Source: Rhina ancylostomus
Lineage: Eukaryota
Direction: 5' to 3'
DNA length: 64,000 nt
Assembly: GCA_030265395.1 (NCBI GenBank)
Contig: JARFYF010000055.1
Span: forward strand, 29,788,015-29,852,014
The position numbers were made by a program, and so were the translations under genes. Positions 1-49,469 of this stretch are shown here, in pieces. The notes under the pieces are model-generated. The model was not told the DNA's origin. It did no database searches and saw only the letters and a program-made list of their open reading frames with translations. Numbering within the stretch: the stretch's first letter is position 1; each line of letters opens with the position of its first letter.

Positions 1-485
1 TTCGCCTTCTTCCCTCCCACCCTTTGTTTTCCCTCATTCTTGTGGCCCCCTCGCCCCTCATATTTCCCTTCTCCTACCATCATGAGCTGCCCATCACGTC
101 CCTCTGGTTCCCCACCTCCTTCCCTTTATTCTATGGTCTACTGTCCTCTCCCATCGCACTCCTTCTTCTTCAGCCCTTTGCCTCTTCCACCTATCACCTC
201 TCAGCTTCTCACATCACTCCCCTTCATCCCCTCCCCCCCCCCTCCGATCCTACCTGCCTTCCTTCCCCGTGTCACCTGGACTCACTTATCACCTGCCAGC
301 TTGTGTGCTCCTCCCCCCACATTATTCTGGCTGCTGCCCTCTTCCTTTCCAATCATGATGAAGGGTCTCGACCTGAAACATTGACTGTTTATTTTCCTCC
401 ATAGAAGCTGCCTGACCTGCCAAGTTCCTCCACTGTTTTGTGTGCGTTGCTCCAGATTCCAGCATCTGCAGGATCTCTTGTGTCC
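1..485 (+). mobile_element. Penelope-like repeat 3' part with degenerate hammerhead (350-387)
   Basis: Pyrimidine-rich tract, then caatc-ATGATGA-agggtctcgacct-GAAAC-att-gactg, then tail tgctccagattccagcatctgcag. Confidence 0.65.
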
Positions 486-1054
486 CTGCTCCAGAGCAAA
501 GAGCCATTTGAAGCAGTTTTGCCCAGCGTGCATGCAGTCTGCCATCTAATGGTCACTGTGCATCATTGCAGGTGAGAGAAGTGGATCCTGTCAATCTCGA
601 ACACTGATGATCCTTGTCCATCACAAGCCCCTTTTTGGTTATGATCCAAAGTGTCCATTCACCTGTCCCCTGATGCCACAATCAAATCCAGCTGCAGATC
701 AGGTTGCCAAATAATCCAGGTAATTAGTGGTGGTCAGGGCAGCATTTATGCTCATTTGTTTACTTTGGCGCTCAACACTTGTCACTTAAATTTCACTGGT
801 CATCATGCCTCAGGCTGCTGGTTCAGTCTCACAGTGAAATGGGTTCTGCACATTTGACAGTGTTGAATTTATGCACCTAGAAGAAAATTTCCGTCCCAGT
901 GTTTCTCTGTAACGTGACCAGTCTGCCTTTGCTTCACGTCTGTTGCTAAAACCTGATTTGAGCTGGACTCTCTGGCAGTTTAGCAACACGACCAGCGTAC
1001 CAGGGACTTTGGAGTAAATCCCAAATCATTGCAGGGCAACAGCACTGACCAATG

Positions 1055-26498: not shown

Positions 26499-26587
26499 AT
26501 ATTTTGTACCTCAAGCTAGTCGGAGGATAATTTGGTCCAATGACTGTGGACCAAATTATCCTCTGACTAGCTTGAGGTACGAAATAT
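26499..26587. repeat. Near-perfect inverted repeat: 41-bp arms, 7-nt loop
   Basis: 26499-26539 is the reverse complement of 26547-26587 with two mismatches. Confidence 0.95.
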
Positions 26588-27958: not shown

Positions 27959-29501
27959 GTAAACAGACATACAATTTGAGATATGACATATCTATGTAAT
28001 CAATAGGGATTTATTTATAAAATAGAATAAAAATGCTTCATAATACATTATTCAATTACACATGTATTAAGATGTCCTAAAAATTGTTCCCTTGTAAACA
28101 TACATATTACACCATGCACTTAACTCTTCCTTTACTTTCTCCACAATACCAAAACACTTGGCTTGAAAACTCCTATGAGTTGAAGTTAGGATGAGGAACT
28201 GAATCCACAAGATACCTTTCCTCCCACAACACCACCATAAATCCTGCCACTTCCAGGGTTGTGTGTCTAGCCACAATGTGCAGGTTGCACCATAATGCAA
28301 TGTCATTGAGGAAACAACATCATCCACTTTCTCAATCAGGCCCTTAGCTCTGTTGCAAACAAAAGTGCATCCATAACTTTGGTGTTGGCACTGAGTATTT
28401 CTAAGGAGGAAGAGAGGCTGAGAAATTTAAAAGTTCAAACAACTGTTTTGATGGGAGTAACAGATTGTATTATAAAGACTGGCAGCATGAAGATACTAAA
28501 CCTTAAAGGGTCTTCATGCTGCAGCACGCAAAACCAATCTCTCCACTCTGCTGGGTACTCCAGTGCACCATTAACAGTGCCACAGATTTTGAATGAGAAA
28601 GTCACTGGGAAGGAGCGTCCCATACTACCCCCATTAGTACTTTCAGGACCTATGATTCCATACCACCTCTCAAGATGTGTAGCTTGTATTCTGTGAGGTG
28701 TCTTCCTACTTTACTGTTCCATCACATTCTGAAGAATAGAATATACTTCTCAAAGGACTGTGGNNNNNNNNNNNNNNNNNNNNNNNNNNNNNNNNNNNNN
28801 NNNNNNNNNNNNNNNNNNNNNNNNNNNNNNNNNNNNNNNNNNNNNNNNNNNNNNNNNNNNNNNNNNNNNNNNNNNNNNNNNNNNNNNNNNNNNNNNNNNN
28901 NNNNNNNNNNNNNNNNNNNNNNNNNNNNNNNNNNNNNNNNNNNNNNNNNNNNNNNNNNNNNNNNNNNNNNNNNNNNNNNNNNNNNNNNNNNNNNNNNNNN
29001 NNNNNNNNNNNNNNNNNNNNNNNNNNNNNNNNNNNNNNNNNNNNNNNNNNNNNNNNNNNNNNNNNNNNNNNNNNNNNNNNNNNNNNNNNNNNNNNNNNNN
29101 NNNNNNNNNNNNNNNNNNNNNNNNNNNNNNNNNNNNNNNNNNNNNNNNNNNNNNNNNNNNNNNNNNNNNNNNNNNNNNNNNNNNNNNNNNNNNNNNNNNN
29201 NNNNNNNNNNNNNNNNNNNNNNNNNNNNNNNNNNNNNNNNNNNNNNNNNNNNNNNNNNNNNNNNNNNNNNNNNNNNNCCCCCCATAGTGAGGGCAGCAGA
29301 TTTTCTACCCCACTCATCAATCATTTTAATTTTTAATTATAATCCAAGAACTTCATCATCACTTTTAACTGATAACAGCTTTTTTTTTTCTTTTTTTAAA
29401 ATACAATTTTGGCAAGAATGTGTTATCTGTGGCAAACCCTAAATGCTTCCTGTTGAGGTCTGTACAGGCTTCGAAAGGCTGAGAGAGAGAGCCCAAATTA
29501 C

Positions 29502-29620
29502 CTTGAACCAAGTCTTGATCCATCTGTTCTGTCATTCTGTTCCAGGATTGTGGGAGAGCTTGAATATTTGGCAGATTATCATAGCTGATATTCTGAAGTA
29601 AAATTTTCTTGGCAAGATAC
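29502..29620 (-). CDS. C1orf109: C1orf109/AIRIM third coding exon (YLAKKILLQNISYDNLPNIQALPQSWNRMTEQMDQDLVQ)
   Basis: Manual translation matches the recalled human YLKRKYLL...NIQALPKAWDRI...QDLVQ. Acceptor caag| and donor G|gtaatt. Not in the ORF track. Confidence 0.9.
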
Positions 29621-30765
29621 CTTGCATGATTGTTAATGAAAATAGTATGATAATGTAACTAATAGTTTAAGAACCAGATGAATCTTTCAATCACTACCTT
29701 GATCTTCCATAACCAACAACTTGCACTTACTTTTCAGCTTCGGCATCACAATACATCACAAGGAACCAATAAAAGGCAGACATCAGGCCTGAGCGGTGTG
29801 GATAATTAAGACAGATGATTGTTTGGCTAAGAGAGTGGAAATCAAAAAGCTGCAGATGTTGGAAATCTGAAATAAAATCAGAAACACCCAGTGAAAAGAT
29901 GCTGCCTGATCTGTTGAATTTTCCAGCATTTTCTGTTTTGGGTGAGAAAGTGCTCGGCTGGGAGTGCAAAGATAAATACACAGGGACATGAACAGGCAAA
30001 GAGGTGAATTTGAGGGGGGTGCTGCTTGATAAAACAAGTTGCAGTGGCCTGAAAATGCATTTGGGGAGTACAATGATCCCCATTATCACTGGTATACTCT
30101 CATGGTTTACTACGGGCTTGCCTAATGACCCCATCGGGGATTAGGGGTGAGAGGAATCCCCAAACTACATTGGACAGTTGTCGTCTCTGGACTGTGCTCA
30201 CTGACAGTATTAGCAGTGACTTGATCAATGATAGGCCTGTAAAGAAAATTCTATCCAGAAGTGGGATAAAATGCCAACTGAAAGCTCTGGCTCGAATATA
30301 GCAAAGATGGAAAAAACATGTAAAACAGACTTTAAAAAATAACCTAAGCCGTCATAGGAAGTTATAGATACAGGCAGAAAGGATGCCAGGATAGCACAAG
30401 AGTTCCTCTCATTCGGGAAATCTCCTAGAATGGAAGATCACTCACACATTGCAGCCAGCAGCCCAGGACAAAGGTAATATGTCTCCAGGGTTAATCCCTG
30501 TCTTCCTATTTCTATCTTGGGAGAGGAGCAACTGGCTTGAAACTATTCCCTTCTCCACCATTAAACACATCCACTGCATTTTACCACCTACAGCCCTCAT
30601 TCTAATCATCCAGTCATCAAGGCTCCTCAGTTAGGCTACCAGCCCTTCCATTTCAAGAAATAGCCTGGAATTTACAGACAGCTGGTCCCAGAGAAATTAT
30701 GGCATATAGAACGACAGCAGCCATGAAGAAAGCCCTTTAAGAAAAGGGGCCGTGGAAAAGGATAC
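29621..30765 (-). other. U12-type (minor spliceosome) GT-AG intron of C1orf109
   Basis: 5' site GTATCCTTTTCC. Branch-like TTCATTAAC at 29640-29632 sits about 11 nt from the 3' splice junction, with no polypyrimidine tract. Confidence 0.88.
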
Positions 30766-30945
30766 TGGTTTTTGTAAAACCACTCAACATCTTGAAGCCA
30801 TTCCAGCATATCTGCCACAGAAGGATTGAGACTTGATCGCTCAAGGACTGCAGTCAAACCAATGGTGTCAGCATGTAGTTCGTACATTTGGAAGCAAGTC
30901 AACACTTGGTTACTCGTTGTGTCCCGCACCCTTTTCAAAACATTC
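30766..30945 (-). CDS. C1orf109: C1orf109/AIRIM second coding exon (NVLKRVRDTTSNQVLTCFQMYELHADTIGLTAVLERSSLNPSVADMLEWLQDVEWFYKNQ)
   Basis: Conserved PSVADMLEWLQD motif. Acceptor tttaag| and 180-nt length keep phase 2. Donor is GTATCCTTTT. Confidence 0.93.
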
Positions 30946-32363
30946 CTTAAAAGATGGGAGCAAAGCACAATGAGTTGATTAATTATCATCCCTGTTAAAG
31001 CCTTCTGGACAATGCAGTTTTTACAAGCAGTCCTTCTCCACTCTCCCTTCACTAGAAATGAGCTGATTCCGCATCACCAGAAATTCAGTTCAATATCCAG
31101 AAATTACTCAAAATCAAACATTTACAGGTCAACTTTAGCACTGTGTTCATGCATTGCGAAATAAATTAATCTCGCAGTTCCAAAGACTTGTCAGATTATA
31201 CGTTGAAGCCTCACTAAGTACATGAGCAAGAGCTGCATCAAAACTCCAAGGTCATACCGTATTATATGTGTCTTAGCTCAGATGTTTAACTGACTCTGAA
31301 GGAACTTTCCCAGTATTCAGGCAGGCCCATAAATGTCTTTCAACTACCAAAAACAGATTAACAGGTTAACAAACAATTTGCTATTTATGGATTTTCTATT
31401 GGCGTTTTTTTTTGTTTCTACACACTAATCCTCTGAACGACACTGGTCATCCATCAGAAAATACCTTAAGCAAATATTATTCCAAAATGGAACTAAAGTT
31501 AATAGCTTCACCTTTTAGATTAAGTCAGATGCAACAAGCCAAGTGCAAGTTTACAGTAACTATGACACTTGAACCAGAGGACAGAGGCTTTCAAGAACTC
31601 TTTGGACTATTAACCCAAGTTCAACAATATCTGGGGAACTGAAATATCTCCAGATTTTCATAAATGATAAATGAAAAACAAGATCAAGTCTTTGAAGGGA
31701 AAGATAGTAATAAAAGTAAAACTAATTTGAGAATGTTCCCCCAGGAGATAACTGCTTTGTGATCAAAACTCTCTTTATAGTGTAGTCAACTAGGCCTTTG
31801 TTTATTTACATCAAGAATGCTAATCGGATTACGCTTGCTTGGAGGGTCTTGCATAGGGACTAAAAGAAGTAGCTTTTTCAGCTGGCTACTCTGCAGAGTC
31901 TCCTGAATGGGGCCTGTTATCCACAAATAAGCAGCCTCAGGTGAGGTGATAAAGCTTGAAGTGGAGGTTTCTGCAGCTGGGATTTAGGCAGGCATCTGCC
32001 ATGAAGTAGAAGTAGCTTTATTCTGCACTCAACCTGTTGCAAATGACCAGGGACTATTCACTTCCAAAAATACCCCAAATGGAAGATATTCTATTTCTCT
32101 AAAACAAACATAACACTTGTATGAGCACAAAATTCAATGAGGATACTGTAATTTGCTCATCTTCTCCAGACACTGGAGTCCAGTAACTCACTCTAAGTCA
32201 GTTGTCAGGCACAAGATATCAATGTTCTTCATCAGATTAATTACTTTTTTCTTTGCTTAGTAGTTTTAGTCTAATTTCAACATTACACAACAGAATAGCT
32301 GGACAAATAAACACTCCAACACTGCACTTTAGGCTTCATTATCAATAGTTAATTTAAGCATAC

Positions 32364-32635
32364 ATTTTTTCTCCAAGTTTTTCCAAATTGATGTCCATTG
32401 CTTGGGTAAGTTTATACTTCAGGCGGTGTTTCAGATCAGGAAATTCTCGAAAGGGAGTATTCTTAAAGTCAACGTTGTTGCATGCCTGGAGTTGCTCTGC
32501 CAGGTTACTCAACGAGCTCAGGAGTGGACTGCATTCCAACAGTGTACTGTCCCACAAACTTTGTTGCTTCTCAATGGCCTGGAAGCATTTCTCCAGGGCT
32601 TGATGAACAGCCAGCAATGCTTGTTTCTGAGCCAT
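32364..32635 (-). CDS. C1orf109: C1orf109/AIRIM first coding exon (MAQKQALLAVHQALEKCF...LEKLGEKM); exon starts at 32654 with 19 nt of UTR
   Basis: Translation matches the recalled human C1orf109 N-terminus (LLAVQEALKKCF..., LLSSLSNLAEQLQA, FPDLK). Acceptor tttag| at 32655-32656 and donor AT|gtatgc at 32363 (phase 2). Confidence 0.93.
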
Positions 32636-35600
32636 TAATTTCTTTTATGGAAACCTAAACAGAGAATGGCACAGTAATAAATCCAACCAACAAAGACAAA
32701 CATCCTGGAAAATAAAAACTGTAAAGAAAATGCTCAATTATCCCAATAATGTGAAAAATGCTTGTCTATTATATTGAATGGCACGATAGTTAAATAAAAA
32801 GCTGGTCATTTTTCATTTGTGGGAAAGGGCATAAATGAATTGAAAGTGCTTCTACACTCAGTCCTTATGCTGTTATTTAGCTACCCATTACCAATTAAAT
32901 CATATGAAGTCTTAATTGAATTAATTAAATCCACAATTCTCTAAGAGATTTATGCAAATTTAGCATTAAAAATGCTATACTCCAAAACACACCACAGCAG
33001 TGGCTGTATTAGTAAAGTACTTGATTGGCAATGAAGCATGTTAGGGGCAGGCTGAGGTCATGAAGCTACTATTTAAATGTAAACTCTTTCCTTTGAATCA
33101 TTAATAGCAATTCAGACAAAGATAAAACAGCAGATTCCATTTATGTTGTTGAAGTATTGAAAGTCAAAATTAAATTAAGTAGTCTTCATCAATTTTAGGA
33201 TAAATGCTTGGCATTAGTTCAGTGCAAAACTACTTTTGTGATTTGTCATTCAAATCTAGATGTTGATGTACTCCCATTTCTACTATTCCTCATATCTATT
33301 ATATGATGCACTGGCAATAATTTGTTCTCTTTACCATTAACCAAATAACAATCATATTTGCACTACACCATGCAAAATATGGATCTAGATTATGCATTTC
33401 AATGTATAGATTATGCATTTCAATGTTTCATCACTGGCAGTAAGCACTCAAAGTAATGAGCCACACATGCAACTGTTCACCCTTTACAGTTCTTCAAGTA
33501 CACATACCCAAAGATTAATTACAATTGGTTGAGAACATTGAGAAATGTACAAGGTAAATGCATGGAAAGGTACAGTAACACACCAAGTAATTTCTTTGGC
33601 TTGATACTTTCTGGTGAGATAATAAGATGGGTATGAATTAGAACAGATTGGCTTTTATTTCTCTTATAGCCAGGAGGGCTGTGTTGCTTAAATGGAAGGA
33701 AGTCATTCTGCCTACTCATGCTCAATGGTAACAGGATGTTATGTCATATCTATATTTAGAGAAGATCCACTGTTCAATTTCTGAATCTAACTTAGACTTT
33801 CAAATGCTGTGGGGACCTTTTTTGAATAATTTTCAAAACACTTGATTTTGCGGCTAAAATACAGATATTGGCTGATATTGCCATGTGTCAAGGGTTTTTC
33901 CTTGTCCTTTTTCTTTATTAAACAGCTTCGGTCTTGGTAGTGGGTTTAGATTTTTTAATAATAAAATTATTCCAATTTATTTGTTATTAATGAATTATCA
34001 TGTATGATTATTAATATAGAGTATTGTGATTTCAAGTATGGTTTAACACAATACATTTACCTTTTTGATTCATGTATTCTATATTTTCTTTGTGGAATTA
34101 ATAAAAATATTGTAAAAAGTAAAAAGAAAAAAAATCTTATCAGGAATTACATCATAGGTTTCCAAATTACAGTCTCAGGGATCTTCAGACCTTTGTATTT
34201 CTTTTCATATTTTCTCCTTCTTCCTTCTCAGGCAGTCCCTCAGGATCATGGATGACTTGCTTCCACTGGCTTTGTGGGTTCTGTATTGGCTGATGACACT
34301 AACGTGGGATCTATGGACATTTCTATAGAACAAATGAGAGGAGGTTGNNNNNNNNNNNNNNNNNNNNNNNNNNNNNNNNNNNNNNNNNNNNNNNNNNNNN
34401 NNNNNNNNNNNNNNNNNNNNNNNNNNNNNNNNNNNNNNNNNNNNNNNAAAAGGTAGAAAGATATCTAAGGGACTATAGACTACTTAATGTCAGTGAGGAT
34501 ATTTAATGGAAACTTTAATATGCAATAGGGAAACAATTAGATATCTGAAAATTTAATAGCAAGCTTAGATCTCATATGAAGATTATGCTTCAAAGTAATG
34601 GAATGAGCAACCAAGAACAAAATGACAAATACTGATTAATCAAATTGGCTCAGTATTTAACACAGGTGGACATGAATTAGAAGAGGTTAAAAAGATACAA
34701 ACTGTAGTTAAGATAGAAAATTGATGAAAATAAAACAAAGTTAGACAGTAAAGCTCCTACACCGACTGAAATTTATTTGCATGTAGTAAAATGACTACTG
34801 GACAAATTATTACATACATCAAAAAAAGTAGTGCTGGGAATGGAGTTCAAGCTTATTAGCTGTAATTTATTGGAAATTTTCATTAAAAAATTGCAACAAT
34901 TTGCTGGTTAGTAAACTTGTGACTAAAGTCAAGTGTGTTTACTATCAGTGCATTAGGATAGCTTGTTAACTGCAGCACAAAACAGTAACGGTTATGTATA
35001 GTTACAGTGACTATCAAGAGGAAAGTCATGTTTAACAAGGAATGGCCTGGGACTATTGTTCTTCAAATAAACAATTTGGATCAGGAATTGGAGTGATAAC
35101 ATCAAATAGTAAATAATGAGGTAATCCGGAAACAAATGTAACATGTAGATTTAATTAGTATGTGAATTTCAATAGAGTTAAGTGCAAGATCACATTTTGA
35201 TAGAAATATTAAGGACAACATACATTGAATAATACTTCTGCATAAAGTTAAAGAGCCAAGGGATCTTGGGGCTCAGATACAGAAATCACTAAGTATTGCA
35301 AGAGATTAATAAAGCTATTAAAAGGATTCATTGTCACAGGATAGAACTGAAAAGCAGAGAGTATGCTAAAGATTATTAAATCTTTGTTAGACCATTGGTG
35401 TTGCCTGGCTCTGGCCTCCAGATTATAGAAAATAAATATGAAAACTAAGGAGAAAATGGAGAAAAAAAATTCCAACATTTTTGTTATTTTAGATTTGCAT
35501 ATTTGGGATTTCAACTTGTCTTACATTCACTCCAAAACCAGGGCCATTCCAACCTGCATAGAGCAGTTTGTTTATGGAGACGATGCTGGCATTTGAACAC

Positions 35601-36278
35601 ACTTCTAACCGCCCTCATGTCACAACTGTTATGATTAAAGGACTAGGTTCTCCCTCCCAAACTGCCCCCATTAACTCATCTACCAAAAAACTTTGTTTAG
35701 TTAATCTATTGGGCAACCACTACCTCACTCTCTCACAGATTTTTTATCATCCTATCCTTCCCTCCCCCTCCCTGTAACACAAGCAAATTTGTTTATTCAG
35801 TTTACCAATTCTGACAAAGTGTCACACACCTGAAACTTTGCTTCTCTTCCCCACAGATGCTGCATGACCTCAAAGTAGTTCAAAGTAGTTTGAACTTATA
35901 TTACTGGTTCTAGAATATTTACCACCAAAGTTAAAGTAGCTGAAGGACAATTAGAGATGAGCACTAACTGCTGGACTACATGCCAAACCTTCTGTCCATG
36001 CACCAAAACCCACTCTGCACCGCAGTGTCCACATCATAGAGATAGAGCATGGGAACAAACAGGCACTTCAGCCAACCAAGTCCATGCCGAGTATCAATCA
36101 TCCACTTACACTAATTCCATATTTTATCTGCCCACCTTTCCCCCAGATTCTAAAACTCATTTACAAACTAGGGACAATTCACCGTGTCTAATTAACCTCC
36201 AAGCTAGGACATGGGAGTGAACTTGGACAACCAGAGGAAACCCACACAGCCACAGGGAGAACCTCATCCTCCATACAG

Positions 36279-36460
36279 ACAGGAGACACAAGGAATTCTG
36301 CAGATGCTGGAATCTGGAGCAAAATACAAGTGCTGGAGGAACTCAGCAGGTCGGGCAGTATCTACAGAGGGAAACAAACAGTCGACGTTTCGGGCTGAGA
36401 CCCCTCATCAGGACTGGAAAGGAAGGGGGCAGAAGCCAGAATAAGGTAGTGGTGGGAGGG
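36279..36460 (-). mobile_element. Short retroelement tail carrying the hammerhead (Penelope-like repeat family)
   Basis: Closely similar to the inverted copy at about 320-485 (ctgcagatgctggaatctggagcaa...gaaaggaag). Confidence 0.7.
36379..36416 (-). ncRNA. Minimal type I hammerhead ribozyme motif with intact core
   Basis: Minus strand reads CAGUC-CUGAUGA-GGGGUCUCAGCCC-GAAAC-GUC-GACUG: stem I CAGUC/GACUG, catalytic core, stem II GGG/CCC, palindromic ACGU stem III, GUC cleavage triplet. Confidence 0.8.
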
Positions 36461-36724
36461 GAGAAGCACACACAGGCGTGGGGAAGGGGAGGAGAGGCAG
36501 CCGGCGAGGGCCAGGGAGGGGGGGAAGAAGAATGACGGGGATCGGCCCTGAGGCAGCTGCTCCACCTCGTCCCTGCCCACCTCGCCGCACCGACAGCGGG
36601 CCTCCAGGCCCAGGGCATCACCGCGGGCGCTCACCAGTAGTCGAGACTTAACTTCCGCAGCCAGTAATACACAGCGCTGCCTGGACCAACCGACAACAGA
36701 CCGCTCGGCCCACACCACACGTAC

Positions 36725-36790
36725 CTGCTCCGCATCCCGCCGGCGTCATGGCATCCCAAGTAAACAGCGCCTGCGCAGTACCCACACGTG
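36725..36790 (-). other. C1orf109: Probable non-coding first exon of C1orf109
   Basis: Lies in a CpG-rich island next to promoter motifs. Strong donor CAG|GTACGT at 36724. The TSS is not defined. Confidence 0.55.
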
Positions 36791-36810
36791 GACTACAACT
36801 CCCATCGTGC
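36767..36810. promoter_or_regulatory. Housekeeping promoter core: NRF1-like GCGCCTGCGCA (36767-36777), E-box CACGTG (36785-36790), ZNF143/THAP11-type ACTACAACTCCCATCGTGC (36792-36810)
   Basis: Motifs read directly and clustered at the edge of a CpG island (about 36470-36810). Confidence 0.75.
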
Positions 36811-36927
36811 CTTGCCAAATTTAAAAAAACTAATTCATTTCTCTCAATTCAAAATTGTAATTCAAACTGAGAATCCATGTAGTAGTTATATATTAAATCA
36901 CATTCATTGCGTTTTTAACAAGAATGC

Positions 36928-37175
36928 TTCAAAATATTTCAGTGTTTGAAAACTTCCATTGGCTCCCGTGGGGTGAAAATGCCGCACTGTGATTGGAGAA
37001 TGGGCCCAGGGGGGGGTAATGCTGCAGTAACTGCTCTGTGATTGGCTATTTGACCGCCTAACTGCGCTTGGATTGGCTGCGGTTGGAAAAGACCGTGGTC
37101 TGATTGGTGCTGCTTCCCCTTCAGGTTTTGATTGGCTGATCTGCCGTATTGCTGTTTGACTTGTAATGGCGCGGT
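36928..37175. promoter_or_regulatory. CCAAT (NF-Y) array 1: six ATTGG boxes plus CHR-like TTCAAA/TTTGAA
   Basis: ATTGG at 36958, 36992, 37041, 37072, 37103 and 37131. TTCAAA at 36928 and TTTGAA at 36945. Confidence 0.7.
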
Positions 37176-38379
37176 ACGTCAGTGTGGCCTGGTGGCGGGT
37201 CCGGGCCGCGCTTTCTCCCACCACCACCACTCCACCCCCAACACAACCATACCCCCACCCCACTCACAACACACCCCCACCCCAACNNNNNNNNNNNNNN
37301 NNNNNNNNNNNNNNNNNNNNNNNNNNNNNNNNNNNNNNNNNNNNNNNNNNNNNNNNNNNNNNNNNNNNNNNNNNNNNNNNNNNNNNATTTTACTTATTAT
37401 CATAAGTAGTTATTAATAAAGTAGTTTTTTAACACTTATACATGACTTGGTGTGTTTCTTTTGCTGCTGGTTCGTAACAGGATAGGGGAAACATAGTAAG
37501 TGCTAATGTTGAGAGGACAGATGGGATCAGAGAAAAGGAAGAAGGGGAAGCAAGATGAGGAGGGTATTAAAATTCATATGTTCTTGAAGCTTGTAATTCT
37601 GGACACTTGAAAGCAAGGAATATAGTTTTCTTCTTAAAGGACTGGATGTGACAAAAGATGAAGTGAAAGTGTGGACCAGAACAGCTGTGAGAAAGGGTAA
37701 GCCATTGTTGCTGAGAGAGAGTGGGGCTGAAGAGCATCCATATGCCGACACATGGACCTCAGGGTGACAGGAATAATGAATATCTTGAGAACTGCAATCA
37801 CAGGTGGATCCAAAATATGAAGGGTGAAATTTCAATTAGAATCCACGTTGAAAAATTAAGTGCAATGAGGTGGGAGATCTGGTTGTGAAAGTAAATTTCA
37901 GTAGATACCTTATCAAAAAGAGGAAAGGCAACCGAAACACACGTCAATTAAAATGAGCAAGATAAAAGAGAGGAACAGAAGTCCAGTTGGAGAGATGCAG
38001 AACTTCTTCAAGGTGAGCATTCCTGGAAGAGCTGACTGAGTCAACTTGTTTGCAAAGAACAATTTCGCCACTCAGTTCACCAATCTGTGCCATGTATGCA
38101 GTGTTCAGTCCCCCCAGAAACCTGCACATGTGCAGAAGAACTCTGACACTTAATACAATATGGACACTGGTGACTCAGTAGACAATCTACTCCATTGTCC
38201 CTCAATATCAAAGTTATATGAACTGGGGACATCATTTGCTGGGGCACGTTCCTTCCCCAGCGGGGTAGAGGAGTGGGACTGTGCACAGAAGGGGTGTATA
38301 CTCACCCTGGGATGAGGACTGTCCAGTTGTAATCAAGTCATTGTGTGATACCTTTCATGAATTATCAGAGAGCTCAGGA

Positions 38380-39505
38380 AAATCCAGAGAGATGCCAGGT
38401 ATGAAGATCTTTAAATCCTGTTGCAAAATGGCATGTAAAATTTAGTGCAGAAAAGTGTGAAGTAGTAGAAAGAATAGTGAGAAACGAGAAGGAATTAAAG
38501 GTACTGTTCTGTTGGGTGTCCAGGACCGAAGGGCCCTTGATGTATGTGTGCATTAAGCCTTGAAAGCAATGGGTCATGTTGAGAGGAGACACAAGAGACT
38601 GCAGATGTTGGAATCTTTTCTCTCTCTGTCTGCCTCCATCTATCATTCAACTGTCACTGTCTCCCTACTCCACCCCTGCTCCCCTCCCCTACCTGGCACA
38701 ACCTGCCTGTCATCTTACACCTCTCCAGTCCACCCATCACCTCAGACTCCTTTCTCACTACTCCCCTTTACACTTGCCATCTCTCAACTGATGCAGGGTT
38801 TCGACCAGAAACATTGACAATTCCTTTCCTCCTACAGGTGCTGCTTGACCTGCTGAGTTTCTCCAGCAGATTGTTTGTTGAGAAATCACATGGGATCCTG
38901 AGATTCATAAGTAGAAACAAAGATCACAAAAATAGAAAGTTTATGTTAATCCTGTATAAAACGTTGGACAACAGCTACACCATAATATCCAATTTCTGGT
39001 CGTCTAACTTCAAGAAGGATCTAAAGTTCATATTCAGAGGGGAGAGAAAGGTGTAGCGGACTGTTGTAGGGTTGCAAAAAAAATAAAGCTTTTCTCAAAC
39101 AGTTCCAGCAACAAGGAATTTCAGCTAGGATTAGACTGAAGAACTTGGGATTGTTCTCCTTAGAGTAAAGAAGTTTCAGAGGAAATTTGATAAATAATGA
39201 AGATTAATTAGAGTAGATAGAAGAACTAAGTGATTTTCATTCACAGTGATTCAAGGATGCGTTGCCACAGATTTAAAATTTGGGACAAAGGACACAAGGT
39301 GGGTGTGAAGGAAAGATTTTCTCATGCAGAAATTGGTTATGGGAACATTGCCTGCAGAAACATCAATAGTATCTACAAAAGTAAATTGAACAGGCACTAA
39401 AGAGAGGATGATTTATAAGGTTATTAGAGCAGGGAAATGGGATTTCCCAACTGGGAGTCAGCACAGGGTCAACGGACTGAATGGCTTCCTTCTGTGCTGT
39501 TGTGA
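38380..39505 (+). mobile_element. Degenerate CR1 fragment
   Basis: CR1-like ORF2 C-terminal remnants and the tail atggcttccttctgtgctgt. Confidence 0.6.
38590..38880 (+). mobile_element. Penelope-like repeat copy with degenerate hammerhead, nested in a CR1 fragment
   Basis: ctgatgcagggtttcgaccagaaacattgac at about 38788-38818, followed by the family tail. CR1 sequence lies on both sides. Confidence 0.55.
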
Positions 39506-39511
39506 TTACAG

Positions 39512-40000
39512 TTCTTTTTCAAAAATAAACTTTATTCATAATAAAATATATTTACAAAAACAAAGAAAAATAGTGCAAACATTCTACATTCTTGGTGTCA
39601 TTTGTCATAGTCGTAGGGTTAACACTTTTTTTGAAACCATAGCACCATTGCCACTTACGTGACCACTGGGGCGATACAACCTTTCATTGTTTCAAGGCTT
39701 CCCCACTTGACTCAGCCCCTCCATGTCCAGTAGCGGAAGACTGTAGACTGTGGTGTTTCCCCATGGAGCCTCTGCGTTGCCTTCACCAAGCTTCAGTGCA
39801 TCCCTCATCATGCACGTCTGCAGCTGGGAACATGCCAGTCGGCAGCATTCCCTTATGGACAGCTCGCTGTGCTGGAAGACCAACAAGTTTTGGGCAGACC
39901 AGAGTGAGTCTTGCATCGAGTTGACTATCTTCCAGCAGCATCTGACATCTGTCTGTCTATGTGTCCCTGGGAACAATCTGTGCATCAGAGAGTCATGATT
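39512..40000 (-). mobile_element. L1/Tx1-like LINE 3' end
   Basis: ORF2 C-terminus-like LFPGTH...CCWKIVN...LWSAQNLLVFQ...W, plus AATAAA and an A-rich tail on the minus strand. Confidence 0.7.
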
Positions 40001-40113
40001 CCAATTTATTTTTTGCATGTTGCCTTTTTGTTTGATTATCACTTTGTCTTCAGGTTGCTAAACTTCATGCAGCAGAACAACTTCCTCTTGTTAACCTGCC
40101 CAGCCGAGCTATG

Positions 40114-40346
40114 ATTGGCCAGCATTGAGCCAGCCGAACTGTGATTGGACTTCCCTGGGACAGACTGACAGACAGTTGGCATCACTGATTGGCCATTGCT
40201 GAGCCGGCGCAGCCGTGATTGGACGTTGTTGAGGCAGCCTACGCTGTGATTGGTCAGCACTGGGGCCGCCTGCAGCTGCGATTGGTTGGGGGCGGGGGTG
40301 AGGCGTTTGCCGAGCTCTGGTTTGTCCGTTGCGTTTGAAATTCAAA
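40114..40346 (+). promoter_or_regulatory. CDCA8 G2/M-type promoter: six CCAAT boxes, GC box, palindromic double CHR
   Basis: ATTGG at 40114, 40144, 40188, 40218, 40249 and 40281. GGGGCGGGG at 40289 and TTTGAAATTCAAA at 40334-40346. A CpG island follows. Confidence 0.8.
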
Positions 40347-40388
40347 CCGCGGCGCGGGCGGCGGCCTCGGAGAGAAGCGGAGCCGGAG
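40347..40388 (+). other. CDCA8: Probable non-coding first exon of CDCA8
   Basis: Immediately downstream of the CHR, inside the CpG island. Donor GAG|gtaaac at 40389, with an alternative GGG|gtaacg near 40413. Confidence 0.5.
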
Positions 40389-42389
40389 GTAAACGGGGGT
40401 CTGTGGTCGGGGTAACGCGGTCCGCCGTGTAGGGCGCCGGGCCGGATGGACGAATATGGGGAGGGGGGCGATGTTGAAGGAGCGCGGCCGCCCGGGGCAC
40501 TGCAGGGACCCCCCTCACCACCCCCCCCACCCTCACCTTCCTCAACCTCCCCCCCCCCCCCAAACCTCCTCCCTCAACTCCCGCTCACCAACGAGCGGGG
40601 GATGGCTTGTAGATCGGACTGAGATCACCCGTCTCCAGCCTCCCCGCCAAGTCGGTGCCCAATCCCCGCCTCCTGCCGCGGAGACCATCGAAAGCCGTCG
40701 CTCTGCAGCCTCTTGTCTCTGGCAACCTGCCTGGAGAGTGTTCTCCTGCAAGGCACCCGTCCTGATGGGATCGGTGTGGTGGTGGTGGGGGTTGGTATGG
40801 ACTTGATGGGCTGAAGGGCCGTTTCTGTGCTGTTCAACTCTCTGAGCATTTGCAGTGCAGTCCTTTCTGTCTCATTATACCTCTGCAGCCTGCCTTGAAG
40901 TGTTCTACGTCAACCATATCTCGGGGTAGAAACGTGAACAGCACAGCCCTTTGGCCCACAATATTGTACTGACATAGCTATTCCCTCCTACCTAAAGGAT
41001 GCCCATATCCCTCTATTTTCCTCTCATTCATGTGTCCATCCAAGCCCCTCTTAGAAGCCCACCAAGGATTTGCCTCTGCCACCCTATCCGGCAACCACCA
41101 CTCTCTTGGTTTAAAAAAAAGTACCCCTCACATCTGTTCTGAACCTACCCCCTCTCACCTTAAATGCATGCCCTCTGGTATTGGATCGCTCAATAATGGG
41201 AAAAAGATANNNNNNNNNNNNNNNNNNNNNNNNNNNNNNNNNNNNNNNNNNNNNNNNNNNNNNNNNNNNNNNNNNNNNNNNNNNNNNNNNNNNNNNNNNN
41301 NNNNNNNNNNNNNNNNNNNNNNNNNNNNNNNNNNNNNNNNNNNNNNNNNNNNNNNNNNNNNNNNNNNNNNNNNNNNNNNNNNNNNNNNNNNNNNNNNNNN
41401 NNNNNNNNNNNNNNNNNNNNNNNNNNNNNNNNNNNNNNNNNNNNNNNNNNNNNNNNNNNNNNNNNNNNNNNNNNNNNNNNNNNNNNNNNNNNNNNNNNNN
41501 NNNNNNNNNNNNNNNNNNNNNNNNNNNNNNNNNNNNNNNNNNNNNNNNNNNNNNNNNNNNNNNNNNNGGGAATATGGTACTCCTTCGGATTGGGAGGCTG
41601 ACTAATGGGGTGCTGCAGGACCCTATGGCACCCACTGGTCAGTGGACTCCCTGCTGTTGGTGATCTTATTGATTTAATTTGGGTGAGGGGACATTTGCTG
41701 ATGTTACAAAGCTGGATGGCAGTGTGGGTTGAGAGGAAGATGCAAGGGAACCTTGGCATGATTTAGACAGGCAATGTGAGTAGTTCCCAATGGAATATAA
41801 TGTTGGAAACTCTGAAGTCATCCACTTTGGCTTAAAAAAAGCAGCATTTAAAAAAAATACAAGTTGGGTATTGGAGTAAACCACCTCTCCCCTCAAGCTT
41901 GTTTGTCATTTAGTATGATTGTGCCTTACCTGACAGTTACCTCAACAGTTCTGTCTACCTGTGGTAATCTTTTACTTGCTTGCTGATCAAGAATCTATCT
42001 ATCTCTGCCTTAAAAGTATTTGCACTGTTTCTACTGCCCTTTGAGGAAGACAGTTCCTAAGACTCAACCATCTAGGAAACAATTTTGTCTTTGTCCTAGT
42101 TTTATATCTTCACACCAGAGAAAATACAACACTCCGTGTTCACCCTATCATGACTCTTCCTGCAGGAGCTTTCATGATTTCATTAAATTGCCCCTCATTT
42201 TTTAAAAAATTTAATGGGATACAAGCCTAGTCTGTACAACCTTTCGACATAAGACTGATGTCCATTTTGCATATTGGTTCCAAAACCCTCTGACCCACAT
42301 TCTTTAATAAGGAGGCCCATATTCTATACAGTACTGGAAATGTCTTGGCAGTGCCCTGTACAACTGAAGCATGATGAGAGATTGAATGT

Positions 42390-43340
42390 TGTTGGTACAC
42401 TCCACTCTGCTTTGGATCACCTAGACAACCACAAGACATGCATCAGGCTACTGTTTATCGATTACAGCTCTGCGTTCAACACCATCATTCATTATCAGTA
42501 CTAATAGCTAAGCTTCAAAACCAGGGCCTCTGTACCTTCCTCAGCTTGTAGGGAGACCACAGTCAGTACGGATCAGTAATAACATCTCCTCCTCAATGAG
42601 CATCAACACAGGCACACCTCAAGTATGTGTGCTTAGCCCACTGCTCTACACTCACGACTGTGTGGCCAAGCATGGTTCAAACACCATCTATAAATTTGCT
42701 GATGGCACCACTGTTGTTGGTAGAATCTCAGGTGGTGATGAGGAGACTTGCAGTAGTGAGATTGGCTGGTTGAGTGGTGTTGCAACAACAACCTCACACT
42801 CAACATCATCAAGAATAAGGAACTGATTGTGGACTTCAGGAAGAGGAATTCGGGAGAACACACACCAGTCCTCATTGGGTCAGTGGTGGAAAGGGTGAGC
42901 AGCTTCAAGTTCCTGGGTATCAACATCTCAGAGGATCTATCCTGGGCTCAGCACATTGATGCAATTACGAAGAAGGCAGGCCAGAGGCTCTACTTCGTTA
43001 GGAGTTTGAGTAGGTTCAGTATGTCACCAAAGACTCTTACAAATTTCTACAGATGTACAGTGGAGAAGGACACTCACCATCCAGGATGTGTCCTCATCTT
43101 GTTACTGGCATCAGGGAGGCGATACAGAAGCCTGAAGATCCAAACTCAACGATTCAGGAACAGCTGCTTCCCCTCCACCATCAGATTTCTGAATGATCCA
43201 TGAACACTACCTCATTATCCCCTTTGTTTTGCACTATTTATTTATTTTTGTAATTTATAGATTTTTGTCTTTGCATTGTACTGCTGCTGCAGAACAACAA
43301 ATTTTACATCCTTTATCAATGATAATAAATCTGATTCTGA
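42390..43340 (+). mobile_element. Rex1/L2-like LINE RT fragment
   Basis: LLFIDYSSAFNTI, GTPQVCVLSPLLY, KFADGTTVVGRI and SFKFLGINI motifs, plus a (gattct)n tail. Confidence 0.88.
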
Positions 43341-44422
43341 TCCTATTTAGGGGATCATTCAACCTCTTGTGCCTACTCCATTATTCAATAAGATCGAGGG
43401 TGACATTTACCTCTATCAATTTCCCGCAGTAAAAAGCCTTTCCTCATTGTACTCTTGTAATAATGGTCCACTTTCCAGTTTGCTTCCTAAATTCTTGTAT
43501 TAATTCTTCCTCATTAATTTTCTGGATTCATGTTCTTGAGAACCCTTTGATGCCTATATTTTCAATGTCCCTGCTTCTTTAGTTCTTTGTATCAAAGTAT
43601 TTGATCACATTTTTGTGCATTATATTTATTTGCCACGTCCTTGTCTATCCACCTAGTGCCTGTGTGTCCAGTTTTGTTTCAGTTCAATGGCCCTTCAAAA
43701 CTGGAAACGTGAGCAAACATTGAGAAGGGGAGGGATGGAGAGTGGTGCTGTGGCTCTTTCCTACATCCCAGAGATGAGCTGGTTGGTGGGTTAACTGACT
43801 ACTGTAAATTACCCCTAGATAACTGGGTAGGAGAATCTGGGGAAGCTAATGGGCGTGTAAGGAGAATCTGTAATATGTAGGGAAATAGATTGATGGGATT
43901 CCTCTGAGGACCAGCTTTACTGCAACTTGGCATATTTGACTTCTGTTGTCCTAGTTCTGAGGAAAGTCATCAACTTGAACCCTTAACTTTGTTTCAAATG
44001 TTGCTTGATCTGCTGTGTAGTTTCATCATTTTCTGCTGATATTTCAGATTATTAATCAATCCTTATTCATTGCTCAATATTAGATTTGAAATGTAGTAAA
44101 ACTCTAATAATCCACTATCCAACTATCTGAGGTGGCCATTTGCTGCGTTCCTTTTAGGTAGTACTGAAGCTCTCATTGCTGTGCTCCTTTTAAATGTACT
44201 AGGTTCACTGGAAAACCTATTTTTCTACTATGTAACATCATTTTAAAAATGTGAATTAAAAGTGTACTTTATAATATTACTAAGGATAACATCCAAAAGC
44301 CTAGAATACCTGCTAGTCTGGTACCACTATAGTCAAGAACATGCTGAAAGATCAAAATGTTACTGTAGCCTGTTTCTTGTTCTTTCATGAATTCAGCTAA
44401 CTTGGTTTGCCCTGTCTATATA

Positions 44423-45569
44423 CAGGAAGTCCCTGGATTACGAATGAGTTCCGTTTTTGAGTCTGTTCGTAAGTTGAATTTGTATGTAAGTCAGAACAGT
44501 ATGTAAGTCAGTACAGTATTTATAATTGTTATTCAGGTTAAACAGACCCATTTCAATGGTTTTCGTTATGTTTCTTTTTTATTCTGTGTGGGATGCAGCA
44601 AGTGAAGGTTCAGTGGGTTGCGGGTGACGTTAACTGAACAAGGAGCAGTTATAAGCATTGCTGTACTTGGAAGTAACTGGCATGAGTCCTTGTCCTCCAC
44701 AGGTGTTCTCCTCAGGATGAATTGCTTTATAGCTCAGTATAGGGAGGCCGAACAGGCCTGTGTCAAGCAGTGTGATCATTCAGCATTGAATGTGGGCCAT
44801 CACTGGGGACTGGGAGCATCTGCTTCACATGTTAATGTGCTAGGAAATATCTTTGTTAACAACACAACATTGATTGCTGATCAGTGAGCTTGCTACTTGC
44901 CAGAGATTTTAAAGAAATCTCTGGACTGGGGAAAGCTGAGCAGCAACTTCCATGACATCTAAGCAGAGCACAGTGTGGAAAGAACACACTGAAGCCCTTG
45001 CCCCCTCTCCTCACCACCTGGCTCCATGCTTCCTTCTGTACTTGGACAGAAATCTACCATTCGGTGAGTCCAATGCTGACAAAATAGCAAACAGTACACA
45101 GGTGGTTTGACAACATTACTCAAAGATAAAACGATTACGTAATGTCTGGATCCAGTGTTCACTGCCTCTGTTCTAAGACACGGTCAGATGTTCAGAAAGC
45201 ATCTTACTCAAATCATNNNNNNNNNNNNNNNNNNNNNNNNNNNNNNNNNNNNNNNNNNNNNNNNNNNNNNNNNNNNNNNNNNNNNNNNNNNNNNNNNNNN
45301 NNNNNNNNNNNNNNNNCATCTAACTCAAATCATTATGCAAGCAAATCGGTTCTTCTACAATATTTTATGAACATTAAAATTCCTCACAATCAGATGCGAA
45401 TGTAGACAACCACTGCATTAAACCATACATGTATTTACAGTTTGTCCCGTACAAACAAACAAACCGTCCGTTTGTTAGTATGAACCATTGTGTGTAACTT
45501 TTTTTAAAATAATAGGCTTTATGGAGGTCAGTTTGTAAGTATGGGCATTCGTAATCCAGGGAATTTCTG
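44423..45569. mobile_element. Tc1/mariner-superfamily (Tigger/pogo-like) non-autonomous DNA transposon
   Basis: About 24-bp TIRs (caggaagtccctggattacgaatg / cattcgtaatccagggaatttctg) flanked by TA on both sides. Confidence 0.75.
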
Positions 45570-47322
45570 TATAGATTAAAGTCCTTCATGATTATTGTCT
45601 TAAACTTGTTACATTGTCACCATCTTCCTTATTTGTACTATTCTTTGGGATACCACTATTATTTGTGTGTATATAGACAACTCCCACTGATTTTGGACAT
45701 GGACCCTTCGTTTCTTACGTTCGCACAAACTGATAATTTTTTCCATGATTTCTCTGAGTGAAGTTCTTTTCTCACTGCGACCTTTGTCCCTTGCTTCATT
45801 CCTCTCCTCTTTCCATTCAGCCTGTCTCCAAGAAATATCCTTGACTATTTAATTTGTAAGCTTGCTGGGTTTACAGTCATGCTTCTAGATCATACAATAT
45901 CTGTATTTTTATGAATACTGCGTGCATTTGATAAAGAGCCCTCAGTTTTGTCTTTTTACAAGTTTTCCCTACTCTGACTATTTAGCGGTTATAATCTTTA
46001 ATTTCTATTCCCCGTCCCTAACACGTGCATCTGTAGCACTCAACAGGTAGAAAAGCCTTTGAGGATCAGTACTTGCAGCTGCAGAGAAAAGTATTATGCC
46101 TCTAACTATACTTCCCCCTTTCACCGCCATGTACCTTTTTAATCGGCCAACTAGAGTGGCATCCTGCATCGCAGTGGTGTGGTCAATTTGCTCTGAGTTT
46201 GTTCTAATTTCCTGCAGTCTCTGCCCTCGTTGTCACAAGCTACAAAAGAAAACTATCTATTGGACAGGTGCAAGGACTGAGGTTTCTCCAACATTACAAT
46301 CTGGATCTTCATACCTGCTCACTTGTGGCCACACTTTCTTGTATCTCTTGATTGCCATAAAGAGGTCGTGCTATCTGCCATTTGGTTCGGTGTTTTAAGT
46401 GAGTTCAATGCATTGACCAGAGATAATTGCAATCTTGAACTCGGAAGATGTAAACTGGAGGTTACTGGTTGATCTGAATGTATGTTGGTGGAGAATAACC
46501 TCTCTTGGGACTTGCACTCTGGTATCATGCAAGATCCTCAATGGATTTGGATTCTGCCTTTGCTGCATTGAGGTGAAGTTTAACTGAACCATTAAGGATG
46601 AACATGCAACTAGAATTAGCTGGTCGGGACAAGAGTTGGCCATTTAGCCCCTGAAGCTGTTCTATCATTCAGAACCATGGCTGATATGTAAGTCAATGTC
46701 CATTAGGCTACTAGATTATTTTCTGTAGCTGTCTAAGGATGGTTTAATTATTCATGTGTATGGACTTCCTGGTTCTAGGTTTTCACTACTTAGAAAGAAC
46801 TCTGATCTATCCTTTGTCCACTTTAGTTCTGAAATGTGACATTTGTGTATATTGAAATCAATTCACTTAATTTATTTTTAAAAAATCCATTGCCTTTATT
46901 TTATTAATCACTTCTGCATCACATTTACTGACCCCAAAATCTTCATGTTAATATGACTTTGATGGGCTAGAAATAGAGAACCTTATATAATTCAGAAGTG
47001 TTGCTACCTTGAGTTTGTAACTGTGTGACAAAAATTGTTTCAGAAACTTCTGGTGAAATTAAATTACATTTAGTGAACTGTAGCAGGTATTGACTTTGTC
47101 AAGCAAGCACACCGGTGTTCATCTTTCCAAATGCAGGATTAACATTGATAAGTACTGACTCAAAGCTCTAACGTCTGAATTTTAAAGTTGGTAAAAGTAA
47201 ATCAGAGTTTTTATTCTTGTTCTTGGGAAGTTCTGTTTTTCAATAATCCATGAATAAAAGTCAGGACATTGATTACCATGACTACTGTATCATGTTATTT
47301 TCAATTCCTCTTTCAGGAAAGA

Positions 47323-47422
47323 ATGCCTTCAAAACGAAAAGCAACTGGTCGCAAAAATAATTCACTGGACTTAAAGAAGCATGAAAAGCTTCAGGCTTTT
47401 CTGAAAGATTTTGACATTGAAG
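47323..47422 (+). CDS. CDCA8: CDCA8/Borealin first coding exon (MPSKRKATGRKNNSLDLKKHEKLQAFLKDFDIE)
   Basis: KLQAFLKDFD matches Borealin KLASFLKDFD. Acceptor tttcag| at 47316 and donor G|gtatt at 47423. Confidence 0.92.
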
Positions 47423-47929
47423 GTATTATAGTTAACTACAGTCATATCTGTAAAGTCTGTACGGAGAGTGCCTTTCGATTCTCTGTTCTCTTGTTTAAAT
47501 TAGTTTATCCTGTGACCTCTTCCTGCAATAGTCTTTGTTCATCTGTCACTCGTACTTTTTGTTTCCATGTTTGTTTGACTTTATAGTCACTGTTTCTTTT
47601 GGTTTATTAAAGGGAATGATGACTTTCAGCAAACTGGTTCCAGTTCTGATGCAAAATCGTCAACCTAAACTATTAACTCTTTGTTTTTCCACGGATGGCC
47701 CTGATCTGTTTGCTTTCAGGTTTTTCTGTTTTATTTCTCCATGACTTTTAACTACTACACAATAACCTGGCTTTGCATCTGCTCTTTTAGTTAGTGTTAT
47801 GCACACAGTTTTCAAGTTATTTTGTATATTTTCGGGTCAGACTTGCAGCGTTTTTTAAACTCCCTGTTGAGCAGTCTTATCTGATCTTCACCATTCCACT
47901 TCTCCCCTTTTGGAGGAAAATTATTGGTA

Positions 47930-48229
47930 CAGGTTCTCCCCAGGTTACGATAGGGTTATGTTCCTGAGAACTGTTTGTACTCGAACAGTCTGCAAGGCGG
48001 AAATGTGGACACCTGGCAATGTATTTAAGTAAAAAGATCAGCCAACCAAGTGCAATGTGAAATTAAACCATGAAGATTTCTCTGCAAGATGCAATGATAT
48101 TGCTGCAGAGTTCCCACGTGGCAAAAGGTGCTTGCAGTCCTGCAGCAGCTGGCAATTCCATCCCTCCAAAATCCTGATGTATGTACAGACTATACGTAAG
48201 TCAGGGAATTGCAACCTGGGGAAATCCTG
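47930..48229. mobile_element. Tigger-like MITE (300 bp)
   Basis: TIRs caggttctccccaggttacga / ttgcaacctggggaaatcctg, with TA TSD. Confidence 0.7.
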
Positions 48230-49184
48230 TATAGTTGCATTTCTGGCTTTGAGTTTTGGGGCAAAGGTACATTGCACTTGGCATTTCTCAGTGCTCAGCT
48301 GCAACAGTTGTATAATTTTTAAAAAATCTTGCATTAAGACAGGAAATTACTATCATAGATTAAGACCTAAGATCAATCTGGATATGGCTATTATTTCCTG
48401 GAAGTAACTCAGACCTTTTTTTTAAAGAAAGTGGTGAATACTGCACAAATTTACAATGTGGTTGATTGAGTTGAATGCCTTTAATTTGCTCTTGGAAATA
48501 TACCCCCTGTCTTCCTGTTGCTACACAATTCATCTGAGCCTTGCACTGCAGGTCAATCCTTGGGGCATCCTTTGATAGATCTTGAATAAAGTATCAATTT
48601 GTGATTTACTCTGGGTTTCACAATTCTTTTCAATATCATCAGAAATTGTATAATCTGAGGCTTGATATTGTTTATTGATCATAGCCCAGGATTGCTGATC
48701 CATTATTACTTTAATTGATTGAGAAATGTAACATTTTGCCAGACCCTGGTGTAAGCAAAGGGATGGTTCTGTTGGTAATCCTCATTTTTATGAGGGAAAG
48801 AGCAGCTTCAAATTTTCTGAAATCCATCTTGAAGTGGTGCCATGGCTGAGTCAAGGACTTGCTGTCCTATTTAAGGAGAGCTCAAGGGCTTAGTAAATGG
48901 TTAAGTGCAAGTTGATTGGTCTGTAACTTTGGCTGTTCTAAAGAGACTACCCTGGCTTCAGAACTGAAATGAACTTTGTCTGGTGACATTGCAGGAATGT
49001 TTCTACTTTATAACATTCCAGTAAACACATTGCAGTAACTGGAGAAAACTGCTCATTTTCTCAGACAGTGATACCATCATCTTCAGCACTGAATTTCGAA
49101 TGATGCCAAACAGTTGTTAATTTATTAAGCACAATTACTGACTAATATTCGCTTGTCTGAGCTGGGGCTTTGTATATTTTGCAG

Positions 49185-49313: not shown

Positions 49314-49469
49314 GTAAGATATTACGTCCCAGGTAACTGCTATGCGCTGTTAATGAGCTTGGAAATATCTCCACAAATATCAGTGATTTCATTTTCCTGA
49401 ATTGTCCCATTAAGAACATGAACCTTCTCTACTTTAAGCTTATAGCATCTAAAGAAAAAAAATCTTAAA

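Follow-up and report, generated by a model that had tools for sequence, protein, structure and literature searches.

A complete minimal hammerhead motif in a dispersed repeat copy at the edge of the C1orf109 CpG island

Does a complete self-cleaving RNA motif that lies within a host gene act on that gene, or is it the relic of a transposable element whose core has happened to stay intact? This question is raised by a 38-nt hammerhead motif in the window (the whole 64-kb stretch of DNA analysed here), which likely lies in intron 1 of C1orf109 in the transcribed orientation, as judged from the predicted donor and transcription start site. C1orf109 has a role in late 60S maturation (PMC9004343), and the first-pass annotation had suggested that the motif could cleave the nascent pre-mRNA in trans and thereby control a ribosome-biogenesis gene. 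We arrive with high confidence at a plainer reading: the motif is a complete minimal hammerhead in a solo, ORF-less copy of an abundant repeat, likely a truncated Penelope-like terminal repeat; in the pre-mRNA of C1orf109, we predict the motif to be inert. The features on which this reading draws are collected in Table 1.

Table 1. Positions in the window of the motif, its repeat family and the surrounding gene features
Feature	Position	Strand	Basis and remarks
Minimal type I hammerhead motif	36379..36416	-	Window sequence; descriptor; core table
Solo, ORF-less copy of the dispersed repeat with the motif (focal copy)	36280..36541	-	Alignment to 218-488; family end points
Closest paralogous copy in the window	218..488	+	Hammerhead damaged: C3, C11.1, G16.2, C17 changed
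Paralogous copy with inverted tail piece	38631-38879; 38616-38585	+ (hammerhead damaged); -	HMM; core table
Inverted pair of family pieces	51221-51188 with 51237-51324		HMM
Weak third inverted pair	29849-29937		HMM
Decayed, more distant family fragment, same intron	35802..35873	+ (antisense to C1orf109)	nhmmer E 1.6e-4
Piece of a different dispersed repeat, SINE-like, directly 3' of the focal copy	36030..36279	-	blastn; raised contig depth
Candidate cryptic splice acceptor, AG inside 5' strand of stem I	36414..36437	-	17/18 pyrimidines
CpG island with probable promoter / non-coding first exon of C1orf109	~36542..36900	.	CpG o/e; donor scan
C1orf109, part of first coding exon	32364..32635	-	PF15011 CA109-like E 3.6e-26; ATG at 32635
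C1orf109, next coding exon	30766..30945	-	PF15011 E 1.1e-15; frame open across exons
C1orf109, further exon	29502-29620	-	Continues reading frame

The motif and the repeat that carries it

Read from the window sequence, the minus strand from 36416 to 36379 gives in succession CAGUC, CUGAUGA, G, GGGU, CUCA, GCCC, GAAA, C, G, U, C and GACUG, and the core elements that define a minimal hammerhead ribozyme (min-HHR), namely CUGANGA, GAAA and UH, are all present. In the numbering of the 38-nt motif, C3 to A9 occupy 36411-36405 and are followed by one unpaired G (36404) between core position 9 and position 10.1 of stem II. Stem II pairs 36403-36400 with 36395-36392 (4 bp, one of them a U-G wobble, with a 4-nt loop) and has G10.1-C11.1 (G36403-C36392) as its closing pair; G12 to A15.1 are 36391-36388, and C15.2-G16.2-U16.1-C17 are 36387-36384. 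Stem I joins 36416-36412 to 36383-36379 with Watson-Crick pairs at all five positions, and stem III is the loop-less palindrome ACGU at 36388-36385. The initial reading of this strand, with all core bases, a 5-bp stem I, a short stem II and an ACGU stem III, is exact in the sequence, and the cleavage predicted after the C at 36384 agrees with the core numbering, in which U16.1-C17 are 36385-36384.

Such an arrangement is rare by chance. A custom descriptor (core, stem II of at least 3 pairs and stem I of at least 4 pairs) was run over both strands of the 64-kb window and matched the 36379-36416 motif only, and dinucleotide shuffles of the window (n=200) gave a mean of 0.01 matches, with any match in 2 of the 200. 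The folding energy of the motif alone was not significant (z -1.39). The first-pass annotation had named a descriptor or the Rfam hammerhead models as the means of verification, and the two gave different answers: the descriptor recovered the motif, but Rfam returned no hammerhead match to it at the gathering threshold and no hammerhead among the 14 matches at E<=10. The sub-threshold microRNA-type Rfam matches at E<=10 were taken as chance. The statement that this is the sole undamaged core holds for the readable window, according to both the descriptor scan and the core table.

The sequence family of the motif is high-copy and dispersed, as judged from the fragments found with a family HMM and from contig depth. 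The repeat unit measures about 260 bp, and the focal copy consists of a pyrimidine-rich 5' part, the hammerhead and a tail of ~100 nt, its 5' edge being approximate on account of low complexity. It aligns with 218-488 (+) at 71% over 273 nt and at 78% over 196 nt, and a family HMM built from these two copies, both of which are counted among its matches, found 13 fragments in the window at E<1 and 11 at E<0.05. Loose ends of the family in the contig layout at 36282/36283, 36298 and 36331 indicate several 3' end points. Three public contig sets (X1, X2 and X3) were placed on 35500-37200 at 80% likeness, yielding 18,507, 18,207 and 9,848 contigs from the three runs, with depth concentrated on 36184-36468; the summed X1 depth in the bin of the motif was 253,179, versus ~5.6 on unique flanks, which is not a copy number and is taken to indicate no more than a family size of tens of thousands. 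In the inverted pairs of family fragments the 3' ends point outward; these pairs are known from the paralogs, and the focal copy is without an inverted piece. It is also solo, and no tandem copy of the repeat was found in the 64-kb window. The decayed fragments on the plus strand at 35802-35873, 43949-44035, 47638-47707 and 23975-24074 differ in their stem II sequence and probably represent an older subfamily, or subfamilies, of the same hammerhead-bearing repeat; the first of them is antisense to C1orf109 and therefore cannot supply a hammerhead half in its pre-mRNA. The SINE-like piece directly 3' of the focal copy has blastn matches to 3834-3890, 18931-18978, 6478-6510 and 13397-13427, and we take it to be HE1.

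The repeat is likely a 5'-truncated Penelope-like terminal repeat. This origin rests on the motif, the layout and the literature, because no RT or GIY-YIG frame is tied to the family. The min-HHR of metazoan Penelope-like elements was defined by Cervera and de la Pena 2014 (PMC4209133), who describe thousands per genome, ~4,000 in coelacanth and ~9,000 in Xenopus, mostly solo. The assignment of our motif to this minimal type I architecture, already made at first pass, is borne out by the same source, in which the core of fish and frog elements is likewise followed by C-G-U-C. Insertions of Penelope-like elements are described as heavily 5'-truncated, with terminal pieces in inverted orientation and tails that vary (PMC8969392, PMC8557442), and 5' truncation, inverted terminal pieces and variable 3' ends are all present among the family copies. 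Pfam searches found no RT/GIY-YIG or Penelope frame in the focal copy or among the 150 longest of 219 stop-to-stop frames of at least 66 aa, and no GIY-YIG or Penelope frame in 82 of the 83 shorter plus-strand frames in 37000-55000; a search for a full-length parent element, in which two patterns were run against metagenome, genome and viral contigs, gave 0 matches in all six scans. Truncated Penelope copies are without such a frame by nature.

The RT matches in the window are not Penelope and belong to an LTR retroelement, likely of Gypsy type, at 55556-59086 (-), with matches to DUF7041, RT in two frames, RNase H and integrase; self-comparison shows it to be flanked by related repeats (54963-55205, 58938-59195 and 53596-53837). 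Near-perfect palindromes occur at 26499-26587 (89 nt, 90%) and 10146-10178 (33 nt, 91%). An ALKBH8_N match at 42760-43200 (+) (E 3.5e-11) lies inside a repeat common to 49532-50234, and we take it to be probably the end of a LINE frame and not a host gene.

The repeat might instead belong to a family of retrozyme or SINE-like type, non-autonomous and propagated as a small RNA with the hammerhead, the focal copy being a dispersed monomer, and we regard this as unlikely. It would agree with the lack of a linked ORF, both in the frames of the window and in the contig scans, and with the dispersal of the monomers, and one chondrichthyan genome has retrozymes, for which an origin in Penelope terminal repeats is reported (bioRxiv 10.64898/2026.07.22.740005). 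However, retrozymes are recognised by at least two consecutive units that each carry a complete hammerhead, and we found a solo copy, no tandem copy and one descriptor match; the 5' extent differs among copies and inverted pairs occur, as in truncated Penelope insertions; and the motif is minimal, whereas the retrozymes described in PMC7229834 carry canonical motifs. For the host gene, a retrozyme and a Penelope tail would have the same consequence.

CpG decay and the intact core

Three CpGs lie in the working half of the motif, namely C11.1-G12, C15.2-G16.2 and C17-G1.1. The focal copy has kept all three, while the core table shows none in the 23 readable cells of 8 other fragments, some of which belong to older subfamilies, where these CpGs may have been absent from the start; where they were lost, TG or CA is mostly found. 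CpG o/e was 0.44 in the focal copy, 0.24 and 0.08 in its two best paralogs, 0.97 in the adjacent island and 0.30 in the window. The idea that the CpG island protected the CpGs of the core, put forward with the first description of the motif, is in view of these numbers a good one, and we consider shelter by the island the best explanation for the intact core, in that low germline methylation at the island edge likely spared the three CpGs. Two points speak against pure shelter. CpG o/e falls to 0.17 in the repeat just downstream of the focal copy, so that the sheltered zone would be narrow, and the single CpG apparently lost from the focal copy, at 36397, lies in the dispensable loop II, a position at which loss fits selection as well as chance. 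The CpG at 36353 was dropped as an outside control; it may be a gain, because TG is found there in all 8 other fragments and in 84% of the X1 depth. Among the 40 of 104 rows listed, the focal copy departs from the family majority at no fewer than seven places (at least 7, with 84-99% of the X1 depth differing), one of them in the motif (36404) and six outside, and from these rows the motif does not appear to have changed more slowly than the rest of the copy.

As to orthology, organism B (X2) is ~6% diverged (46 of 761 and 25 of ~460 letters differ). Its orthologous flank contigs end at 36260 and 36562, with no motif sequence readable in the X2 orthologue; none of the 15 joints listed, out of 24, skips the copy, and at 36526-36582 there is low cover in X2 but none in X1 or X3. 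Unique cover in X3 is found at 35821-36135 only. There are thus hints that organism B shares the insertion, and the focal copy is not shown to be young. The X2 orthologous contig 36562-37052 has a 28-nt gap at 36602 in the CpG island, as well as a 1-nt and a 4-nt gap at 36701 and 37013.

What disables these motifs appears to be the decay of CpGs at three fixed sites. Intact copies should therefore cluster at CpG islands without any selection; a core that is intact near a promoter is weak evidence of function.

Host gene, folding and possible effects on C1orf109

The donor nearest to consensus by the CpG island is 36724 (8 of 9 positions in a consensus scan), 308 nt upstream of the motif, and a second candidate at 36634 also lies upstream, 218 nt away; because both precede the motif, it likely falls in intron 1 of C1orf109. 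The earlier placement of the motif about 310 nt downstream of the probable first donor, in the sense orientation, matches the predicted donor at 36724. A Borealin N-terminal exon at 49142-49333 (+) stands head-to-head with C1orf109 at a distance of ~12 kb, which we take to be the N-terminal exon of CDCA8; the head-to-head arrangement of CDCA8 and C1orf109 is known from mammals. There are two separate CCAAT-box clusters, at 37000-37170 and at 40130-40300, the latter followed by TTTGAA, and they presumably mark two plus-strand promoters of cell-cycle type near 37000-37200 and 40100-40390. Just upstream of the probable first exon of C1orf109 lies what we assume to be a ZNF143-type promoter motif (36804-36791, -). 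Further down the gene, the intron at 30765-29621 (-) begins with GTATCCTTTT and carries TTCATTAAC shortly upstream of its AG, with the frame open across it, and we presume from its consensus that it is a minor-spliceosome (U12-type) GT-AG intron. The literature matches listed contain no link between C1orf109 and a ribozyme.

Folding was predicted from nearest-neighbour energies, which are without Mg2+, tertiary contacts, coaxial stacking and proteins. The best fold predicted for the monomer (-12.7 kcal/mol) is a rod that pairs G5-G8 with C15.2-C17 and takes up 71% of the ensemble, the open core accounting for 2%; with 30-250 nt of flank, the predicted probability of stem I is 0.04-0.58, nearly always together with this blocking helix. 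Being loop-less, stem III cannot form within a single molecule, and the claim that it forms only between two copies is supported by the loop-less ACGU palindrome. The active dimer, made up of two swapped stems I and a 4-bp ACGU duplex, is predicted at -20.3 kcal/mol, which puts it 5.5 kcal/mol higher than two monomer ensembles, while the most stable dimer predicted is an inactive duplex (-28.6 kcal/mol); even with a 10 kcal/mol tertiary bonus, the computed dissociation constant stays near 0.7 mM. Activity of the monomer was rejected on the grounds that stem III is loop-less and the core predicted to be sequestered. No second substrate half was found on the sense strand of the readable pre-mRNA (28000-36790), in which N gaps remain; one of them, 100 N long and situated in the intron at 34348-34447, could conceal a partner. 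A cis partner at 34188, the only other sense-strand CUGANGA...GAAA, was likewise rejected, having no descriptor match and no second substrate half.

Among published relatives, the Schistosoma minimal motif showed no cleavage as a monomer and low cleavage as a linked dimer or trimer (PMC4209133). On the other side, such motifs cleave as dimers according to Lunse et al., as cited in a review, and axolotl canonical motifs cleave much better as dimers, and efficiently (PMC7229834). As reported by Frangieh et al. 2024 (PMC11167929), the anole motif needed the protein of its element for cleavage and was dispensable for insertion in vitro, and RNA-seq ends at its cleavage site were not found. The monomer in the pre-mRNA is predicted not to cut C1orf109 RNA. 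To judge from published relatives, two tandem copies in the parent element would pair via ACGU, swap their stem I strands and cut the RNA of the element itself. The focal copy would have landed at the edge of the C1orf109 CpG island, where low germline methylation likely spared the three CpGs whose decay ruins other copies; its lone transcript is predicted to fold as the rod that pairs G5-G8 with C15.2-C17, and the motif would be spliced out with the intron, uncut.

The copy might also act by splicing and not by cutting, the cryptic acceptor at 36414 giving rise to a minor alternative 5'-UTR exon with the motif and upstream AUGs; we consider this very unlikely. The acceptor, with 17 of 18 pyrimidines, is the joint best of 7 candidates in the intron and outscores 32705, the one adjacent to the coding exon (14 of 18), a second, weaker candidate acceptor in the copy ends at 36362, and candidate donors at 36182, 36135 and 36109 lie downstream of the copy. 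The donor at 36724 is preceded by CAG in the sequence, and splicing would therefore rebuild stem I exactly. In Drosophila Penelope, the element has an intron of its own, which runs up to the 5' end of helix I (PMC4209133). However, pyrimidine counting is a crude score, and 35445 scores the same as 36414. Moreover, cryptic splice sites in repeats are common and mostly silent. If the copy affects C1orf109 at all, a candidate cryptic 5'-UTR exon would, from the sequence, be at least as likely as cleavage.

That a family transcript pairs in trans, or that the protein of the element helps, so that the nascent intron 1 is cut before splicing and the level of transposon RNA tunes a ribosome-biogenesis gene, appears extremely improbable. 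This model could draw on the complete core in sense orientation just downstream of the probable first exon, on a very abundant family with partners in other pre-mRNAs, on the lizard Penelope element that cleaves with protein help (PMC11167929), on the intronic CPEB3 ribozyme that modulates CPEB3 mRNA (PMC10274809) and on the late 60S role of C1orf109 (PMC9004343). Against it stand the cost of the active dimer (+5.5 kcal/mol, ~0.7 mM even with the 10 kcal/mol bonus) and the difference rows listed (40 of 104), which do not point to a motif that changes more slowly. Furthermore, the next acceptor is ~3.7 kb downstream, ~1 min of transcription at the mammalian rate (PMC10274809), slow intronic ribozymes were without effect on splicing (Fong 2009, as cited in PMC10274809), and the region bound by the lizard protein was inferred to lie in the start of the ORF (PMC11167929) and may be absent from the short tail here. 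A regulatory role of the motif on C1orf109 is unsupported, and so is the trans cleavage of the pre-mRNA proposed at first pass: the family is high-copy, the active dimer unfavourable, and cleavage in the relatives absent for the monomer and low for the linked dimer. Equally improbable is a transposon sensor, in which abundant family RNA or the RT/endonuclease protein, on germline de-repression, would complete the dimer on the motif sheltered by the C1orf109 CpG island and cut intron 1 or the cryptic 5'-UTR exon; if true, the level of an essential factor for 60S maturation would fall, and ribosome production would be coupled to the activity of transposons.

Cleavage of a host pre-mRNA in trans or with the help of a protein, if shown, would be a new form of transposon control of host genes, and every intact copy on a sense strand would be a candidate. 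With the inert relic as the preferred reading, the motif adds a further copy to an RNA class known since 2014, from a lineage with very many, and is of little consequence as it stands.

Comparison with known systems

Non-LTR retrozymes (PMC7229834; bioRxiv 10.64898/2026.07.22.740005) resemble the focal copy in having a type I hammerhead in a short non-coding repeat, with dimer-enhanced cleavage in axolotl, but they form tandem arrays with canonical motifs, whereas the focal copy is solo and its motif minimal. The bioRxiv preprint also places 44% of Xenopus tropicalis copies in introns. Like the amniote intronic ribozymes, that is, the RECK and CTCL hammerheads and the HDV-like CPEB3 ribozyme, the motif is a self-cleaving type on the sense strand of a host intron (PMC6155905, PMC10274809). 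Those ribozymes occur in few copies and are conserved across classes, the CPEB3 ribozyme cleaving with a half-life of 2-3 min (PMC6155905, PMC10274809), and conserved amniote intronic hammerheads are described in PMC6155905; the few-copy occurrence and canonical architecture of the RECK/CTCL type are not found at 36379-36416, where the motif is minimal, dimer-only and part of a high-copy repeat, with no Rfam match. The Poseidon element PAc of Anolis (Frangieh et al. 2024, PMC11167929) offers a vertebrate Penelope-clade motif near the 3' tail, as here. The PAc hammerhead is inactive as bare RNA, and inertness is also predicted for the focal motif; the study of PAc included the protein and ORF of that element (PMC11167929), whereas here there is the relic alone.

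As regards the min-HHR, no shark or ray appears among the examples in the searched parts and supplement of PMC4209133, and hammerheads in sharks or rays were not found among the literature matches listed; further supplements and Lunse et al. may contain elasmobranch examples. Stem II has 4 bp here versus 7-8 bp in the Schistosoma min-HHR families (PMC4209133), and the focal copy is without an ORF and without a tandem partner. The C-G-U-C of 36379-36416 is common to fish, lamprey and one Xenopus row in the PMC4209133 supplement. In all, the motif shares with the min-HHR of that paper the full core, G10.1-C11.1, the extra base between 9 and 10.1, the short helix I, the absence of loop 3 and the palindromic 15.2-16.2, as well as a mostly solo, genome-wide occurrence tied to truncated elements (PMC4209133).
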